From: a virus
Lineage: Duplodnaviria > Heunggongvirae > Uroviricota > Caudoviricetes
Reading direction: 5' to 3' (one strand)
DNA length: 8,979 bases
Virus record (IMG/VR): IMGVR_UViG_2585427789_000025
Positions 1 through 6,580 of the stretch are shown piece after piece. The position numbers and the translations under genes are program-made. The notes beneath the pieces were generated by a model, which had not been told where the DNA came from, did not search any database, and saw only the letters and a program-made list of their open reading frames with translations. Each line of letters opens with the position of its first letter. Position 1 is the stretch's first letter.

Positions 1-102
1 GCTAAGCAGGCTGAAAATCTGTCCGCTCTGGAGCAGGATATCACCAATCTGGAAAAAGCAGCGGCATTAAGCATTGCCAGAATGATTACATACCCACGTT
101 AA
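1..102 (+). CDS. C-terminal fragment of a hypothetical prophage protein (5' end outside window)
   Basis: Frame 1 is open from the window edge to TAA at 100-102 (...LEQDITNLEKAAALSIARMITYPR*). The next gene starts 22 nt downstream on the same strand. No function assignable. Confidence 0.4.
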   Translation, partial: AKQAENLSALEQDITNLEKAAALSIARMITYPR

Positions 103-124
103 TGGTTAACCAACGAGGCTAATA

Positions 125-532
125 ATGGAATTTAAAGATTTACCAAAAGAAATCCAGATAATTGCTGCAACGACACTCGGTGATAGTCTGGTGAAAATTG
201 ACCCGGCATACACCAAAAAAGAAACCATCGATAATATGGTTCGTAATGTGCGCAATGCTTTTTCTGGGCTATATGGTTCTGATAATCAAAAGCAGGAAAG
301 CGATGTTAATAAACGGGTAATTTCTGTTTGCGTGAATGGCCATGTTCTTTCATCAATCAAAACAGAAACGGCGACAGTCTTCGATTGCCTTTGCATTGTA
401 CAGAGCCTTGTTGATGCCCTGTTTCGTTCAGTGAATTTAGAAAATGATGCAAATCTGCGAGGGCGCACAATAGCACATCCATATGCACATACTTTAGGCT
501 CTGTGGATATCAAAGATCCCACAAATCTTTAA
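125..532 (+). CDS. Hypothetical protein, 135 aa
   Basis: ATG at 125 with GAGG about 8 nt upstream. The translation has non-repetitive, protein-like composition. No motif recognised. Confidence 0.5.
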   Translation: MEFKDLPKEIQIIAATTLGDSLVKIDPAYTKKETIDNMVRNVRNAFSGLYGSDNQKQESDVNKRVISVCVNGHVLSSIKTETATVFDCLCIVQSLVDALFRSVNLENDANLRGRTIAHPYAHTLGSVDIKDPTNL

Positions 533-743
533 TGAAATAGTTAACGCGAATTGTACTTGCTCTTTCAGTTGCTTTCAGAATACGCGTTGAAACTGCTGGC
601 GGTAATTTGGTATTCCATTTATTAAAATCATGCCCGGAAAAGTACTCTTCGAAAATACTTTTAACTGCAGACTCGCCTATTGAAATGCTGCTTACCATGC
701 GATTTTGATAAAGGCATTTAGCAATAAGAGTTGATTTTAACAT
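510..743 (-). CDS. Hypothetical small protein, 77 aa, convergent with and overlapping the 3' end of the 125-532 gene by 23 bp
   Basis: Minus-strand ATG at 743 is preceded by a consensus AGGAGG Shine-Dalgarno (reverse complement of 749-754, spacing 5 nt). No competing + strand ORF across 533-743. No motif recognised. Confidence 0.55.
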   Translation of the reverse strand: MLKSTLIAKCLYQNRMVSSISIGESAVKSIFEEYFSGHDFNKWNTKLPPAVSTRILKATERASTIRVNYFIKDLWDL

Positions 744-1052
744 TCACCCTCCTGAGGGTTGGTAATTAAGGAGTTCTCCACGGGTGAACATCCGGCACTG
801 ACAGTTTACTGAAAGGATATTTCTCTGAAAAGTCAGAGCATAACGCGAAAGCGCACGGCGAGGTTGCTGGTTCATAGATAGCCTGTCGTTAAATTTTCGT
901 CGACCGTGCGCTTCCGGTTGTGGCACTCCGCGAAATGGCGCGGCGGTAAGTATGGCGGGGTTATTCCTTCCCCGTTGAGGACACCGGGTTGTCAGGTTGA
1001 CCATACGCCTGAGTGACAACTCCGCTACAACAACCCATGTTGATTACCTTTT

Positions 1053-1096
1053 GGCGGGTATTCGTTTTGTTTTTCCCGTGATACCCGCCCCTTTTA
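1053..1096 (+). terminator. Terminator-like hairpin (9-bp stem GGCGGGTAT/ATACCCGCC, 19-nt loop) followed by CCTTTT
   Basis: Stem arms at 1053-1061 and 1081-1089 are perfectly complementary, with T-run 1092-1095 on the + strand. The loop is long for an intrinsic terminator, so a protein-binding palindrome or a leaky tL-type terminator are alternatives. Confidence 0.35.
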
Positions 1097-1100
1097 AAGT

Positions 1101-1254
1101 GAATTTTGTGATGCGGTGAATGCGGCTCAGCGCACGCGGAACAGTTAAAACAAGCGGTCTTTTACTTGCGTAACAGACATCAACTAACAATCCGGCGTTA
1201 ATGGTTTACTGGTTAACGTCACCTGGAGGCACCAGGCGCCGCATCACAAAATTC
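1101..1254. repeat. Perfect 16-bp inverted repeat (GAATTTTGTGATGCGG ... CCGCATCACAAAATTC) enclosing 122 bp, immediately upstream of the operon RBS
   Basis: 1101-1116 is the exact reverse complement of 1239-1254. The interior contains further short stems, such as CGTTAA / TTAACG around 1196-1218. The RBS GAGGA (1261-1265) and ATG 1273 follow directly. Confidence 0.6.
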
Positions 1255-1272
1255 ATTGTTGAGGACGCGATA

Positions 1273-1461
1273 ATGGAAACGTTATTACCAAACGTTAATA
1301 CGTCTGAAGGTTGTTTTGAAATTGGTGTCACTATCAGTAACCCAGTATTTACTGAAGATGCCATTAACAAGAGAAAACAAGAACGGGAGCTATTAAATAA
1401 AATATGCATTGTTTCAATGCTGGCCCGTTTACGCCTGATGCAAAAAGGATGCTGGCAATGA
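1273..1461 (+). CDS. Small hypothetical protein, 62 aa
   Basis: ATG at 1273 with GAGGA at 1261-1265 (spacing 7). The track ORF 1201-1461 is an upstream extension of the same frame with no RBS. The stop overlaps the next start in an ATGA motif (1458-1461). Confidence 0.5.
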   Translation: METLLPNVNTSEGCFEIGVTISNPVFTEDAINKRKQERELLNKICIVSMLARLRLMQKGCWQ

Positions 1462-1661
1462 ATACTACATTTGCACTTGTTCTGACGGTTTTTCTTGTTT
1501 CCGGTGAACCGGTTGACATGGTTACTGGCGTATACGGCTCAATGAAAGAATGCATGGTTGCCGCAGCGGAACAGAAAATTCCCGGTAACTGTTATCCGGT
1601 CGATAAAGTTATTCACATGGATAATAACGAAATCCCGGCAGGACTTAAAACAGCACCGTAA
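1458..1661 (+). CDS. Small protein with N-terminal hydrophobic segment (signal peptide or membrane anchor), 67 aa
   Basis: ATG at 1458 with AAGGA ending 8 nt upstream, coupled by ATGA overlap to the preceding gene. The N-terminus MNTTFALVLTVFLVSG is hydrophobic. The track ORF 1404-1661 starts upstream in the same frame, but only the 1458 ATG has a properly spaced RBS. Confidence 0.5.
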   Translation: MNTTFALVLTVFLVSGEPVDMVTGVYGSMKECMVAAAEQKIPGNCYPVDKVIHMDNNEIPAGLKTAP

Positions 1662-1741
1662 TTAATATCCGGTTTCATTTTTATATGCCAGCAATGGCAG
1701 GGATTTGTTCACCCTTAAATCTGTAATGAGGTTAAAACAAA

Positions 1742-2746
1742 ATGAGTAAAGTCTTTATTTGCGCCGCCATTCCGGACGAACAGGCAATAAAGGAAGAAGG
1801 TGCAGTCGCTGTAGCCACTGCCATTGAAGCCGGCGACGAACGTCGCGCCCGTGCCAAATTTACCTGGCAATTCCTGGAGCAATATCCGGCTGCTCAGGAC
1901 TGCGCTTATAAATTTCTTGTCTGCGAGGATAAACCCGGCATGCCCCGCCCTGCCATCGACTCCTGGGATACCGAATATATGCTGGAAAACCGCTGGGATG
2001 AGGAAGGCGCTTCCTTTGTCCCGGTCGAACCAGAATCCGATCCGATGATCGTCAATTTTGACAAGCTGTCCCTTGAAGTACAGAACGCGGTCCTGGTTAA
2101 GTTCGGTACATGTGAAAACATCACCGTTGATATGGTGATTAGCGCGCAGGAATTGTTGCAGGAAGACATGGCAACATTCGACGGACATATCGTTGAAGCG
2201 TTGATGAAAATGCCAGAAGTTAACGCCATGTATCCGGAGCTTAAGCTGCATGCCATCGGGTGGGTTAAGCATAAATGTATTCCTAGTGCCAAATGGCCCG
2301 AAATTCAGGCAGAGATGCGCATCTGGAAAAAACGTCGCGAAGGTGAACGCAAGGAAACCGGAAAATACACGTCTGTTGTTGATCTCGCCCGCGCCAGAGC
2401 CAATCAACAGTACACTGAAAATTCAACAGGAAAAATCAGCCCGGTCATTGCTGCCATTCATCGCGAATACAAGCAGACATGGAAAACACTGGATGACGAA
2501 CTGGCCTACGCTCTCTGGCCTGGTGATGTGGATGCCGGAAACATTGACGGCAGCATCCATCGCTGGGCAAAAAATGAAGTTATCGACAACGACCGCGAAG
2601 ACTGGAAGCGTATCTCGGCATCGATGCGCAAACAGCCTGATGCCCTTCGCTACGACCGCCAGACTATTTTTGGCCTTGTCCGTGAGCGTCCGATCGACAT
2701 TCACAAAGATCCTGTGGCACTGAACAAATATATTGCGAATACCTGA
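1742..2746 (+). CDS. Hypothetical acidic protein, 334 aa (prophage accessory protein of unknown function)
   Basis: Long ORF with TGAGG about 12 nt upstream of ATG 1742 and a hydrophilic, Asp/Glu-rich translation. The antisense ORFs 1715-2407 and 1906-2292 are shorter and Phe/His/Cys-rich, so judged spurious. No catalytic motif recognised. Confidence 0.7.
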   Translation: MSKVFICAAIPDEQAIKEEGAVAVATAIEAGDERRARAKFTWQFLEQYPAAQDCAYKFLVCEDKPGMPRPAIDSWDTEYMLENRWDEEGASFVPVEPESDPMIVNFDKLSLEVQNAVLVKFGTCENITVDMVISAQELLQEDMATFDGHIVEALMKMPEVNAMYPELKLHAIGWVKHKCIPSAKWPEIQAEMRIWKKRREGERKETGKYTSVVDLARARANQQYTENSTGKISPVIAAIHREYKQTWKTLDDELAYALWPGDVDAGNIDGSIHRWAKNEVIDNDREDWKRISASMRKQPDALRYDRQTIFGLVRERPIDIHKDPVALNKYIANT

Positions 2747-2766
2747 CTACAAAGGGCGTGTTTGAG

Positions 2767-3111
2767 ATGAAGGAAGAGATCTGGGCGCTGTTGATGTTCT
2801 CTCGTCGTCAGTACCAGAAACTGATGCAGTGGAAACGGGTATCTGATATCGCAAAAACTGAATGCGCGGTGGAAGTTGAACCATCTGTAGAGCGTGAGGG
2901 GCCGTTCTATTTCCTCTTCGCCGATAAGGATGGCGAAAAATACGGTCGCGCAAACAAACTTTCTGGTCTGGATAAGGCGCTGGCTGCTGGGGCTACTGAA
3001 ATCACGAAAGAAGAATATTTTGCCCGCAAAAATGGTACATACTCGGGTTTACCGCAAAATGTTGGTGCCTCTGAAGACCGCACAGCCAGAGCCGGTAAAA
3101 GTTACCGCTGA
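2767..3111 (+). CDS. Hypothetical protein, about 114 aa (start at ATG 2767; alternative GTG 2758)
   Basis: Frame 1 ORF begins 21 nt after the stop of the upstream gene, with AAGGG about 10 nt upstream of ATG 2767. Composition is protein-like. Its 3' end overlaps the 5' region of the downstream exonuclease frame. Confidence 0.55.
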
Positions 3112-4207
3112 CGAAGTAAACAAAATTATGCAGGCAGCCAATATCAGCCAGCCTGACGCCGATAAGTTGCTTGCTGCATCACGTGGTGAATTTGTTGAAG
3201 GGATTAGTGACCCGAATGATCCGAAATGGGTTAAGGGGATCCAGACCCGCGATTCTGTGAACCAGAACCAGCATGAATCGGAACGGAACTACCAGAAAGC
3301 GGAACAAAACAGCCCAAATGCGTTACAAAACGAGCCAGAAACGAAACAGCCTGAACCAGTGGTGCAACAGGAAGTGGAAAAAGTCTGCACCGCCTGCGGT
3401 CAGAGCGGTGGTGGCAACTGCCCTGATTGTGGTGCGGTGATGGGCGACGCAACATACCAGGAAACATTCGATGACGAGTATCAGGTTGAAGTTCAGGAAG
3501 ATGATTCGGAGGAAATGGAAGGCGCTGAACATCCACACAAGGAGAATGCTGGCGGCGCTCAGGATCACGCTAGCGATAGTGAAACTGGCGAGACGGCAGA
3601 TCACCCAATTAAGGTGAACGGTCATCACGAAATCACATCCACCAGCAGGACGTGTGACCATCTAATGATCGACCTTGAAACCATGGGAAAAAATCCTGAT
3701 GCCCCGATCATCTCAATAGGTGCAATATTTTTCGATCCGCAAACCGGAGATATGGGACCGGAATTTAGTAAGACTATCGATCTGGAAACTGCTGGCGGAG
3801 TCATTGATCGGGACACCATTAAATGGTGGCTTAAGCAATCACGCGAAGCGCAATCTGCCATTATGACCGATGAAATCCCGTTAGATGATGCACTGTTACA
3901 ATTGCGGGAATTTATCGACGAAAACTCCGGTGAATTTTTTGTTCAGGTCTGGGGAAATGGAGCCAACTTCGACAACACGATTTTGCGCCGTTCATACGAA
4001 CGGCAGGGGATCCCCTGCCCGTGGCGTTACTACAACGATCGCGATGTACGCACAATCGTTGAGCTGGGGAAAGCCATAGACTTCGATGCCAGAACGGCTA
4101 TTCCATTCGAAGGTGAGCGCCATAATGCACTTGATGACGCTCGTTACCAGGCAAAATACGTTTCAGCTATCTGGCAAAAACTGATCCCGAGTCAGGCTGA
4201 TTTTTAA
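3059..4207 (+). CDS. DEDDh-type 3'-5' exonuclease (DnaQ-like fold) with a disordered acidic linker and a CxxC-x7-CxxC zinc-ribbon; start codon uncertain
   Basis: The C-terminal roughly 190 aa carries the three exonuclease motifs in order: MIDLETMG (Exo I, D-x-E), [13 protein letters not shown] (Exo II) and [10 protein letters not shown] (Exo III, H-x4-D). Upstream lie a Q/E/P-rich low-complexity stretch and [16 protein letters not shown]. The track ORF starts at 2894, but its first 55 codons are Arg/Ser/Trp-rich junk lying over the frame-1 gene. No in-frame ATG (3032, 3059, 3128) has a convincing RBS. Confidence 0.7.
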
Positions 4208-4221
4208 TGTTCAACCCTAAT

Positions 4222-4249
4222 TGCCGCTAACCGTATATAGTTAGCGGCG
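4222..4249. promoter_or_regulatory. Palindrome (9-bp arms GCCGCTAAC / GTTAGCGGC, 8-nt loop CGTATATA) just upstream of the excisionase-like gene; candidate operator or promoter element
   Basis: 4223-4231 is complementary to 4240-4248. The loop holds TATATA (4234-4239), with TTCAAC (4210-4215) 18 bp upstream as a weak -35. There is no downstream T-tract, so an intrinsic terminator is unlikely. Confidence 0.3.
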
Positions 4250-4265
4250 GTTATGAGATATAGCT

Positions 4266-4469
4266 ATGAGCAGCTTATTTTTAACCGAAGATGAATTGCT
4301 AATATTAACGGGCTGCAAATATGCAAGCCACCAGCGAAAATGGTTAATGGAAAACGGGCTTCCGTTCTATACCAATCGTAGTGGCAAACCGATTGTCAGC
4401 CGGGATCTATTTACCTGCAATAAAACTTTACCACCACGCGAGGTAGAGCCGAATTTTGGTGCGATCTGA
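4266..4469 (+). CDS. Excisionase-like small DNA-binding protein (resembles the DUF4224-type proteins found next to phage integrases), 67 aa
   Basis: Sits immediately upstream of the integrase, and its stop overlaps the integrase start (TGATG at 4467-4471). The family call is from memory of the conserved N-terminal pattern, not from a search. Confidence 0.6.
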   Translation: MSSLFLTEDELLILTGCKYASHQRKWLMENGLPFYTNRSGKPIVSRDLFTCNKTLPPREVEPNFGAI

Positions 4470-5494
4470 TGGGAAGACGAAGGAAAAATCCTGAACACGA
4501 AAAATTACCTCCAAATGTATACCCAAATAAATATAGTTATGTATGGAAACCAACATCCAGAGAATCTGTCACACTAACCGCCATCAAGGATGGTTTAGCT
4601 GCTTTATGGAAAAAGTATGAGGAAACTGTAAATAATCGCGATCGTGCAATGACATTCGGTCGCTTGTGGGAAAAATTCCTCGCCAGCGCCTATTACAGTG
4701 ACCTTAGTCCAAGAACACAAAAAGATTATCTGCAACATCAAAAAAAGTTGCTTGCCGTATTCGGTAAGGTACCAGCGGATTCCATAAAACCAGAACACAT
4801 CCGTCGATACATGGACAAAAGAGGGGAGCAGAGTAAAACGCAAGCCAACCATGAAAAAAGCAGTATGTCCCGTGTTTACAGTTGGGGGTATGAGCGAGGG
4901 TACGTGAAGGCTAACCCATGTGCAGGTGTAAGTAAATTCAAGGCCAAAAACCGCGAACGATATGTAACCGACAAAGAATACCAGGCAGTATTAAGCGTTG
5001 CACCTCTTCCTGTTTTTATCGCAATGGAAATTGCCTATCTGTGTGCAGCGAGGGTTTCCGATGTGTTATCGCTGAAATGGGAACAGATTGGAAACGACGG
5101 GATATTCATCCAGCAAGGGAAAACCGGAAAAAAACAGATAAAAGCATGGAGTCCACGATTACAGGCAGCGATCGAAAAAGCAAAACAGTTGCCAAAATCT
5201 GCCTATGTGATCAGCAATCAATACGGCAACCGATATATGTACAAAGGCTTTAACGAAATGTGGGTAGATGCAAGAAATCGTGCTGGAAAAATTTCAGGTA
5301 TTTTAACCGACTTCACCTTTCATGATCTGAAGGCGAAAGGAATTTCAGACTATGAAGGAAGCAGCCGGGATAAGCAACTTTTCTCTGGTCACAAAACCGA
5401 AGGGCAAGTGCTAATCTATGACAGGAAGGTTAAAGTTTCACCAACACTTGATGTCCCGTTACCTGAAAATATTCCAAGAAAATATTCCAAGTAA
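4469..5494 (+). CDS. int: Lambda-family tyrosine integrase, 341 aa
   Basis: N-terminus MGRRRKNPEHEKLPPNVY resembles the lambda Int arm-binding N-terminus (MGRRR...LPPN.Y). Catalytic-domain blocks align by eye to lambda Int: AARVSDVLSLKWEQI (Arg I), GKTGKK (Lys), FHDLKAKGISDYE (His with Lys in the Arg II position), SGHK (His) and LIYDR (Tyr). The gene ends 52 bp from the 3' end of serU. Confidence 0.9.
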   Translation: MGRRRKNPEHEKLPPNVYPNKYSYVWKPTSRESVTLTAIKDGLAALWKKYEETVNNRDRAMTFGRLWEKFLASAYYSDLSPRTQKDYLQHQKKLLAVFGKVPADSIKPEHIRRYMDKRGEQSKTQANHEKSSMSRVYSWGYERGYVKANPCAGVSKFKAKNRERYVTDKEYQAVLSVAPLPVFIAMEIAYLCAARVSDVLSLKWEQIGNDGIFIQQGKTGKKQIKAWSPRLQAAIEKAKQLPKSAYVISNQYGNRYMYKGFNEMWVDARNRAGKISGILTDFTFHDLKAKGISDYEGSSRDKQLFSGHKTEGQVLIYDRKVKVSPTLDVPLPENIPRKYSK

Positions 5495-5501
5495 TTCCAA
5501 G
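5466..5501. repeat. Three direct copies of ATTCCAAG (5471-5478, 5484-5491, 5494-5501) spanning the integrase stop codon; candidate arm-type Int binding sites
   Basis: The first two copies sit in a tandem 13-bp unit AAAATATTCCAAG. They lie between the integrase coding end and the tRNA 3' end, where P'-arm sites lie in lambda attL. Confidence 0.3.
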
Positions 5502-5546
5502 TGTGATTTTTGTCACTGACTTAATGATGTGTAAGTGATTGAATTT

Positions 5547-5636
5547 TGGCGGAGAGAGGGGGATTTGAACCCCCGGTGGAGTTGCCCCCACTCCGGTTTT
5601 CGAGACCGGTCCGTTCAGCCGCTCCGGCATCTCTCC
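5547..5636 (-). tRNA. serU: tRNA-Ser (anticodon CGA), 90 nt with long variable arm
   Basis: Reverse complement of 5547-5636 reads GGAGAGATGCCGGAGCGGCTGAACGGACCGGTCTCGAAAACCGG...GGGGGTTCAAATCCCCCTCTCTCCGCCA. It has an acceptor stem, anticodon loop CTCGAAA (anticodon CGA), a class II variable arm and a 3' CCA. Confidence 0.9.
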
Positions 5637-5729
5637 GTTCAGATGGTTGCCATGATGCCAGGAAATTTGGCATTTTAACAGTCCCTGTCCGTGCAATTTT
5701 GTTCAAGTGACGAGTTTGCGAGCAAAACG

Positions 5730-6527
5730 ATGATTAAGTGGCCCTGGAAAGTACAAGAATCAGCACATCAAACTGCCCTTCCCTGGCAGGAAGCACTATC
5801 GATCCCCCTTTTAACGGGTCTGACGGAACAGGAACAAAGCAAATTAGTCACTCTTGCCGAACGTTTTTTACAGCAAAAGCGGCTTGTTCCTTTACAGGGC
5901 TTTGAACTGGATTCATTAAGAAGCTGCCGGATAGCACTTCTATTTTGCCTACCCGTTCTGGAGTTAGGACTGGAATGGCTGGATGGTTTTCATGAAGTCT
6001 TAATTTATCCTGCGCCATTTGTGGTCGATGATGAATGGGAAGACGATATCGGTCTGGTGCATAACCAACGTATTGTTCAGTCAGGTCAGAGCTGGCAGCA
6101 AGGGCCTATCGTTTTGAACTGGTTGGATATACAAGATTCTTTTGATGCTTCTGGTTTTAACCTGATTATTCATGAAGTCGCTCATAAGCTGGACACCCGT
6201 AACGGCGATCGCGCCAGCGGAGTTCCCTTTATTCCGTTGCGTGAGGTTGCTGGCTGGGAACACGATCTTCATGCTGCAATGAACAACATTCAGGAAGAAA
6301 TCGAATTGGTTGGCGAGAATGCGGCGAGCATTGATGCTTATGCTGCCAGTGATCCTGCTGAATGTTTTGCCGTACTTTCTGAATATTTCTTTAGCGCCCC
6401 AGAACTTTTTGCTCCTCGTTTCCCTTCATTGTGGCAACGTTTCTGCCAATTTTATCAACAAGATCCTTTGCTGAGACTGCATCACGCTAATGATACAGAC
6501 TCGTTTTCGGCGACGAATGTTCATTAA
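5730..6527 (+). CDS. mtfA: Mlc titration factor A (MtfA/YeeI), 265 aa
   Basis: The translation from ATG 5730 ([29 protein letters not shown]...) matches my recollection of E. coli MtfA, including the HEVAH zinc-peptidase motif. The track ORF from 5691 is an upstream extension of the same frame. Confidence 0.88.
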
Positions 6528-6580
6528 TCAACAACTTTGCAGATTAATTAACCAATTGAAATGACTTATGAAATTTAGTG

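Follow-up and report, generated by a model that had tools for sequence, protein, structure and literature searches.

How does a prophage gene come to appear as two overlapping open reading frames? In the window, by which we mean the whole 8,979-nt stretch of DNA analysed here, a 114-aa ORF in frame 1 runs into a longer ORF in frame 2 that resembles a prophage exonuclease. A sequence-only reading of this locus had offered a frameshift mutation, a sequencing error, or a genuine terminal overlap with reinitiation as possible causes, and had drawn attention to a run of four A residues just before the end of the upstream frame. The positions from which it started are correct: the 114-aa ORF extends from ATG 2767 to TGA 3109-3111, the open exonuclease frame extends back to GTG 2894, and the A4 run lies at 3097-3100. 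As we argue below from sequence comparisons, the apparent overlap or frameshift is most probably (at roughly 95%) an assembly or consensus merge artefact, and neither an overlap, a programmed frameshift nor a demonstrated pseudogene.

The first question to address is what these frames encode. On phrog_2082, the PHROG exonuclease profile of 823 positions, three ORFs of the window fall in colinear order: the 334-aa ORF upstream at 1-332, the 114-aa ORF at 367-448, and the 437-aa open exonuclease frame at 447-823. The 114-aa ORF matches the profile at residues 24-105 only, a segment that corresponds to exonuclease residues ~367-448, while its residues 1-23 and 106-114 are out-of-frame translation. 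Likewise, the 437-aa frame matches only from its residue 61, which bears out the earlier description of its first 55 codons, from GTG 2894 to the ATG at 3059 in the same frame, as junk-like. The out-of-frame portions of both ORFs have no homology to the profile. The C-terminal part contains an Rv2179c-like 3'-5' exonuclease domain (PF16473, E=6e-68), and the 334-aa ORF carries the Pfam families YdfE_N and YdfE_C as precomputed labels. A Pfam profile search of the 334-aa and 114-aa ORFs gave no match; these two were placed by PHROGs and by the precomputed Pfam labels. The exonuclease activity of the product is a predicted one, assigned through family annotation. The coordinates of these and all further features of the region are collected in Table 1.

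Table 1. Features of the exonuclease region and its flanks, in window positions; C and A denote the two parent alleles introduced in the text.
Feature	Positions	Strand	Remarks
Pure C allele	1..2341	.	left arm and exonuclease 5' part of the AST19 yccA prophage
Exonuclease gene region	1742..4207	+	2466 nt here, broken into three ORFs; 2472 nt (823 aa) in relatives
334-aa ORF	1742-2746	+	5' piece of the same exonuclease gene; phrog_2082 1-332
Merge zone	2330..3602	.	each column is the higher-ranked C/A symbol under A<C<G<T<gap
Homologous reading frame 2	to 2733
Lesion 1, net -1	2733..2737	+	frame 2 to 1; false stop TGA 2744-2746 ends the 334-aa ORF
Homologous reading frame 1	2734-2766
Lesion 2, net -1	2766..2767	+	frame 1 to 3; GAGAATG or GAAGATG becomes GAGATG
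114-aa ORF	2767-3111	+	frame 1; ATG 2767, TGA 3109-3111; spurious
Homologous reading frame 3	2769-2837
Lesion 3, net -2	2837..2842	+	frame 3 to 1; 114-aa ORF in the true exonuclease frame to ~3077
Homologous reading frame 1	2839-3077
Exonuclease frame ORF	2894-4207	+	frame 2; open from GTG 2894; 437 aa
'Junk-like' 5' extension of the exonuclease frame	2894..3077	+	out of frame; first 60 residues without profile match
Lesion 4, net -2	3075..3078	+	frame 1 to 2; actual junction of the 114-aa ORF and the exonuclease ORF
Homologous reading frame 2	from 3080
A4 run	3097..3100	+	ordinary Lys codon context (…ATA/GTA AAA GTT ACC…); same in every intact allele
Pure A allele and serU attachment region	3603..7107	.	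exonuclease 3' part, DUF4224 protein, integrase, tRNA-Ser(CGA), mtfA, tRNA-Asn, yeeJ 5' end

How is this gene organised elsewhere? At each of the eight complete-genome loci inspected (Ecol_448, 19KM1803, ESDR8, PM7, 99-3165, EC0026B, CE20 and AST19) a single CDS of 2472 nt, encoding 823 aa, spans the equivalents of all three window ORFs. The alignment with orthologues that had been proposed as a check thus yields one ORF, larger than had been guessed, and the opposite outcome, namely two separate orthologous genes sharing the same overlap, was not encountered. On a larger scale, a megablast search with window 2700-4210 found the region in 4741 of 5426 complete E. coli genomes, with 3618 records covering at least 80% of the query; in all 30 of the rows listed, a single feature with an exonuclease name ("exonuclease", "3'-5' exonuclease" and similar) extends over the whole query. 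The gene is also repetitive, occupying a median of 2 and a maximum of 9 places in an E. coli genome. Metagenomic data add a further view: among 74 loci, defined as contigs that carry parental sequence at the junction and fully contain the frame, 49 show a 2475-nt stop-to-stop frame across the site, and a few have shorter frames.

The two parent alleles discussed below match phrog_2082 over positions 1-823 of 823 and PF16473 at E~1e-67. The window and its relatives share the gene order dicB - DUF1482 - exonuclease - DUF4224/excisionase - integrase. Natural variants of the gene exist as well: in E. coli E2855 (L008 495-1916) a copy is truncated by IS1203, which is a real natural variant, and ETEC4068 (L012 1962-4403) has a natural allele of 2442 nt, 30 nt below the usual 2472. 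The earlier suggestion that the ORFs are pieces of one gene consequently stands, with two amendments: there are three pieces, not two, and they are separated by four indels, none of which falls in the A4 run.

Where exactly is the frame lost? In comparison with the intact alleles the window gene measures 2466 instead of 2472 nt, having lost one base at ~2734, one at ~2766, two at ~2838 and two at ~3077; a stretch of only 345 nt in the 2466-nt gene contains all four indels. At the first lesion the alignment of the two parent alleles contains a compensating pair of gap columns, both of which were output as gap, with each parent being one base longer there. The second lesion is of special interest for the 114-aa ORF: its supposed start, ATG 2767, exists because the deletion makes it. 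The fourth, which marks the true change between the 114-aa ORF and the exonuclease frame, is a missing dinucleotide that precedes the A4 run by about 20 nt. The 38 nt of hybrid sequence across this junction (3063-3100) were not found in the genome_contigs or metagenome_contigs collections beyond this record, and the parental A version of the same stretch occurs in 105 metagenome contigs. A control pattern from the C allele was not found in genome_contigs either, so this collection comes without a positive control, most likely a consequence of its holding one genome per species.

What sequence does the window contain around these lesions? To describe it we distinguish three copies of the gene: the 'C' allele belongs to the prophage at yccA in strain AST19, the 'A' allele to the serU prophage, and the 'B' allele to the Qin/rspB site. 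The parents used were C from AST19 (L013:9242-11713) and A from Ecol_448 (L001:2043-4514), both of which serve as proxies from other strains. At the sites between ~2376 and 3579 where C and A differ, the window always has the alphabetically later base, and the parent that it follows switches from site to site. A table of these sites places the beginning of the blend between 2291 and 2376 and its end between 3579 and 3603.

This pattern was formalised in a dynamic programme over three sequences, in which gaps were free to move and each breach of the rule was counted; the higher symbol of every column had to equal the window. The rule A<C<G<T<gap reproduces window 2330-3602 (1273 nt) with 0 exceptions, accounting for 128/128 differing columns, 63 of which come from C and 65 from A. 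Twelve gap columns, arranged as six compensating pairs, sit exactly at the four "frameshift" sites. Were alleles chosen without regard to base identity, a score of 128/128 would arise with a probability of 2^-128. Exceptions numbered 3-122 under the 23 other base orders and 2-60 with other parent pairs. The pairs tried and rejected were C with CE20 and C with EC0026B (2 exceptions each), pairs that include PM7 (27-32), and A with B or with A1 (60). When standard global alignments of the parents were combined with the rule under 276 scoring schemes, the zone was never reproduced as one exact string, because co-optimal gaps were placed differently, a difficulty that the floating-gap programme solved. 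Outside the zone there is no alphabetical bias in 3603-7107 relative to CE20, and the yeeJ fragment shows only a mild one relative to ETEC4068 (32:16), which is not deterministic.

Over 2330-3602 the sequence can thus be written as a deterministic function of two known copies, as expected of a merge artefact: two natural alleles, both intact, are blended deterministically, and the frameshifts are the gap columns of this blend. As side effects, the merge produced the three ORFs and their overlap, and it accounts for the lack of a ribosome-binding site. To our knowledge, an alphabetical choice of bases is the product of no mutation, recombination or mismatch-repair process.

Both sides of the blend consist of sequence that follows one parent. 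On the left, the window and the AST19 yccA prophage are 100% identical over 1-1750 and 1800-2150, with 0 mismatches in 1742-2341, and at the sites from 2246 to 2290 the window always follows C, even where this goes against the merge rule (2246, 2257, 2285 and 2290). This arm includes dicB (62 aa) and a DUF1482/ydfD-like gene (67 aa) at 1273-1661, which overlap by 4 nt and lie upstream of the exonuclease gene as in Qin/Rac-type prophages; they too are 100% identical to the AST19 yccA prophage. On the right, the window keeps to the A parent at 3603, 3606 and 3612, again against the rule. Window 3405-7107 is 99.3-99.4% identical to serU-prophage loci, and the ten mismatches between 3603-7107 and CE20 divide 4 versus 6 with no direction bias. 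In between, the closest allele among the 5426 complete E. coli genomes reaches at most 87% identity for 2747-2900 and at most 92% for 2990-3125. The tail of the blend deserves a separate remark. Over 3405-3579 the window shows fifteen apparently 'unique' substitutions relative to all serU-type alleles, which are C-allele bases kept by the merge rule; this tail contains no frameshift and, taken alone, would pass for natural variation.

The record from which the window derives provides an independent line of evidence. The window corresponds to positions 1-8979 of contig JOSP01000052.1 in the draft assembly GCA_000713785.1. A second contig of the same assembly, JOSP01000066.1, starts (when reversed) at the same base and is identical to the window over 1-3404. 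Past these shared 3404 nt it continues into a different prophage end, with an excisionase, an Arm-type integrase and IS1, adjoining rspB, and its rspB-side end is 100% identical to strain EC0026B. One common block therefore leads into the serU prophage end on one contig and into the rspB/Qin-site prophage end on the other, which is a repeat at the ends of two contigs of the kind that a collapsed-repeat artefact leaves. The blend ends between 3383 and 3405 in JOSP01000066.1 and at ~3579 in the window, and a chimeric origin is probable for both contigs. Among the indexed public assemblies, no contigs but these two carry the exact 334-aa and 114-aa products. A literature search on the assembly accession returned no relevant paper. 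Taken at the level of its sequence, JOSP01000052.1 reads as a false join of two prophages, with the left arm of one and the right arm of the other meeting within the exonuclease gene.

How could such a blend have been produced? Several lambdoid prophages are evidently present in the strain, and each of them has a copy of the 823-aa 3'-5' exonuclease gene (C, A and B). A sequence ending in the C copy would have been overlapped with one beginning in the A copy over ~1.2 kb of the gene, and we infer that this overlapping of different prophage copies happened during assembly or in a post-assembly merging of contigs. Each disagreement would then have been settled by a tie-break in the order gap > T > G > C > A; a consensus routine that takes the last index of the list A, C, G, T, gap at 1:1 ties yields exactly such a pattern. 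The alleles diverge most between 2730 and 3095, where their alignment needed gaps because this region is the most variable linker of the protein. With six compensating gap pairs in this linker and every gap column output as gap, each pair loses one base, which removes 1+1+2+2 bases and creates the four frameshifts.

Could the broken gene nonetheless be real? It might be a genuine pseudogene in which four small deletions accumulated in the living strain, possibly after recombination between prophage copies. Decay of prophage genes does happen, as the IS-truncated copy of E2855 and the few shorter metagenome frames illustrate, and IS elements are also present in the strain of the window. However, the four indels crowd into 345 nt precisely where the C/A alignment needs compensating gaps, the base found at all 128 variable sites is the one that comes later in the alphabet, a pattern that no known mutational or repair mechanism yields, the same block is found on two contigs that run into different prophages, and the products and the junction were found in no other assembly. 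Neither an independent occurrence of the lesions nor natural flanks around them, as a frameshift pseudogene would have, came to light. We consider a pseudogene very improbable, and the frameshift mutation of the earlier reading gives way to a merge on account of the 128/128 fit and the block shared by two contigs. It is scarcely credible that the hybrid itself exists in the strain through recombination between prophage alleles, with the alphabetical pattern arising by coincidence or being laid over it; in a weaker version of this idea, a C-type left arm at serU would be natural and the join garbled.

A homopolymer error, that is an extra A in the A4 run, is extremely improbable. The arithmetic behind it is sound, as a one-base deletion at this run does join frames 1 and 2 into a frame of ~480 codons, the fusion that had been proposed. 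But the gene comprises 823 codons; every intact allele has the same run with the same flanks (GTAAAAGTTACCGCTGAC) and reads them in the exonuclease frame; the change of frame is located at 3075-3078, and three more indels lie upstream. A sequencing error was still the closest of the options that had been put forward, although specifically in the form of an allele merge and not of a homopolymer base-calling slip. The chances are vanishingly small for two real genes with a terminal overlap and reinitiation, or for a programmed ribosomal frameshift that yields a fusion protein. Overlapping ORFs and candidate starts without a ribosome-binding site would agree with either, yet the orthologues, which refute the overlap proposed earlier, are one uninterrupted ORF of 823 aa: in place of a conserved two-frame architecture or shift site, all intact orthologues examined have a single 2472-nt ORF. 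Moreover, non-homologous translation makes up both ends of the 114-aa ORF, with 23 residues at the start and 9 at the finish, as well as the initial 60 residues of the exonuclease frame, so that the two frames are not both homologous up to a shift site, and the arrangement occurs in one assembly only.

The merge artefact has well-known counterparts. Collapsed or merged repeats give rise to chimeric contigs in draft bacterial assemblies, and the window shares with these a repeat of several prophages placed at the ends of two contigs as well as a consensus that, over a divergent stretch, equals no real allele and splits a gene by spurious frameshifts. It differs in being unusually clean: over ~1.2 kb just two sequences contribute, and the choice made in each column is strictly deterministic. 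This speaks for a 1:1 merge with a tie-break, as opposed to a noisy consensus drawn by majority from reads. Within the phrog_2082 exonuclease family (PF16473 with N-terminal YdfE_N/YdfE_C) the window stands apart by a frame that is broken four times, whereas its relatives are intact. E. coli K-12 offers an instructive comparison: its ydfE gene in the Qin prophage, which we take to be an N-terminal remnant of the same exonuclease gene, belongs to the same YdfE_N/YdfE_C families as the 334-aa ORF, but the truncation there is presumably genuine, being part of a finished genome. Programmed frameshifting, as in the IS1/IS3 transposases, dnaX and prfB, resembles the window in its overlapping frames and in that a fusion would lengthen the protein. 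Unlike those systems, the window has no conserved two-frame layout, its frame change lies off the A4 run, and its orthologues have a single frame. IS1 and IS3 copies annotated as 'programmed frameshift' are present in the neighbouring loci.

The right-hand part of the window holds further features that touch on annotation and assembly. A tyrosine integrase gene at 4469-5494 (341 aa) adjoins tRNA-Ser(CGA), its ORF ending 53 nt before the tRNA gene, and is base-for-base equal to the copy in Ecol_448. For the integrase of Ecol_448, as for the copies of three further strains, PGAP lists a 1051-nt 'frameshifted' pseudogene, a call apparently due to a C-terminus that falls short of what the reference model expects. 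We examined a frameshift in the integrase as a possible difference of the window and rejected it, since the gene is identical to that of Ecol_448 and the call is hence an annotation judgement. Further downstream, at ~7106/7107 (7090-7130; 7144-8463), the 5' end of yeeJ, with its ATG at 7018, is joined straight to an internal part of yeeJ that encodes Big_1 Ig-like repeats. Relative to ETEC4068 ~2 kb are missing between the two pieces, and this gap could be a real deletion or a second repeat-collapse artefact of the assembly. The gene is truncated in the window because an IS66-family element abuts the end of the fragment; this element occupies 8463-8979 (ORF 8542/8545-8979, extending to 9111 in L005) and encodes an HTH_Tnp_1 TnpA followed by TnpB_IS66.

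What, then, does this locus tell us? For users of sequence collections it means that the 334-aa, 114-aa and 380/381-aa products are three spurious proteins in public collections that stem from one assembly, and that JOSP01000052.1 would lead to wrong inferences on how prophages are built, on pseudogene load and on "novel small ORFs". It also suggests a cheap and reusable diagnostic for merges: one can check whether taking the alphabetically highest symbol in each column of two known alleles yields the odd sequence. For the prophage family itself, the locus gives no evidence of an overlap, a recoding event or gene decay, and it carries no biological consequence: all exonuclease copies are probably intact in the living strain, and the underlying gene is an ordinary, already catalogued member of the well-populated prophage exonuclease family phrog_2082.
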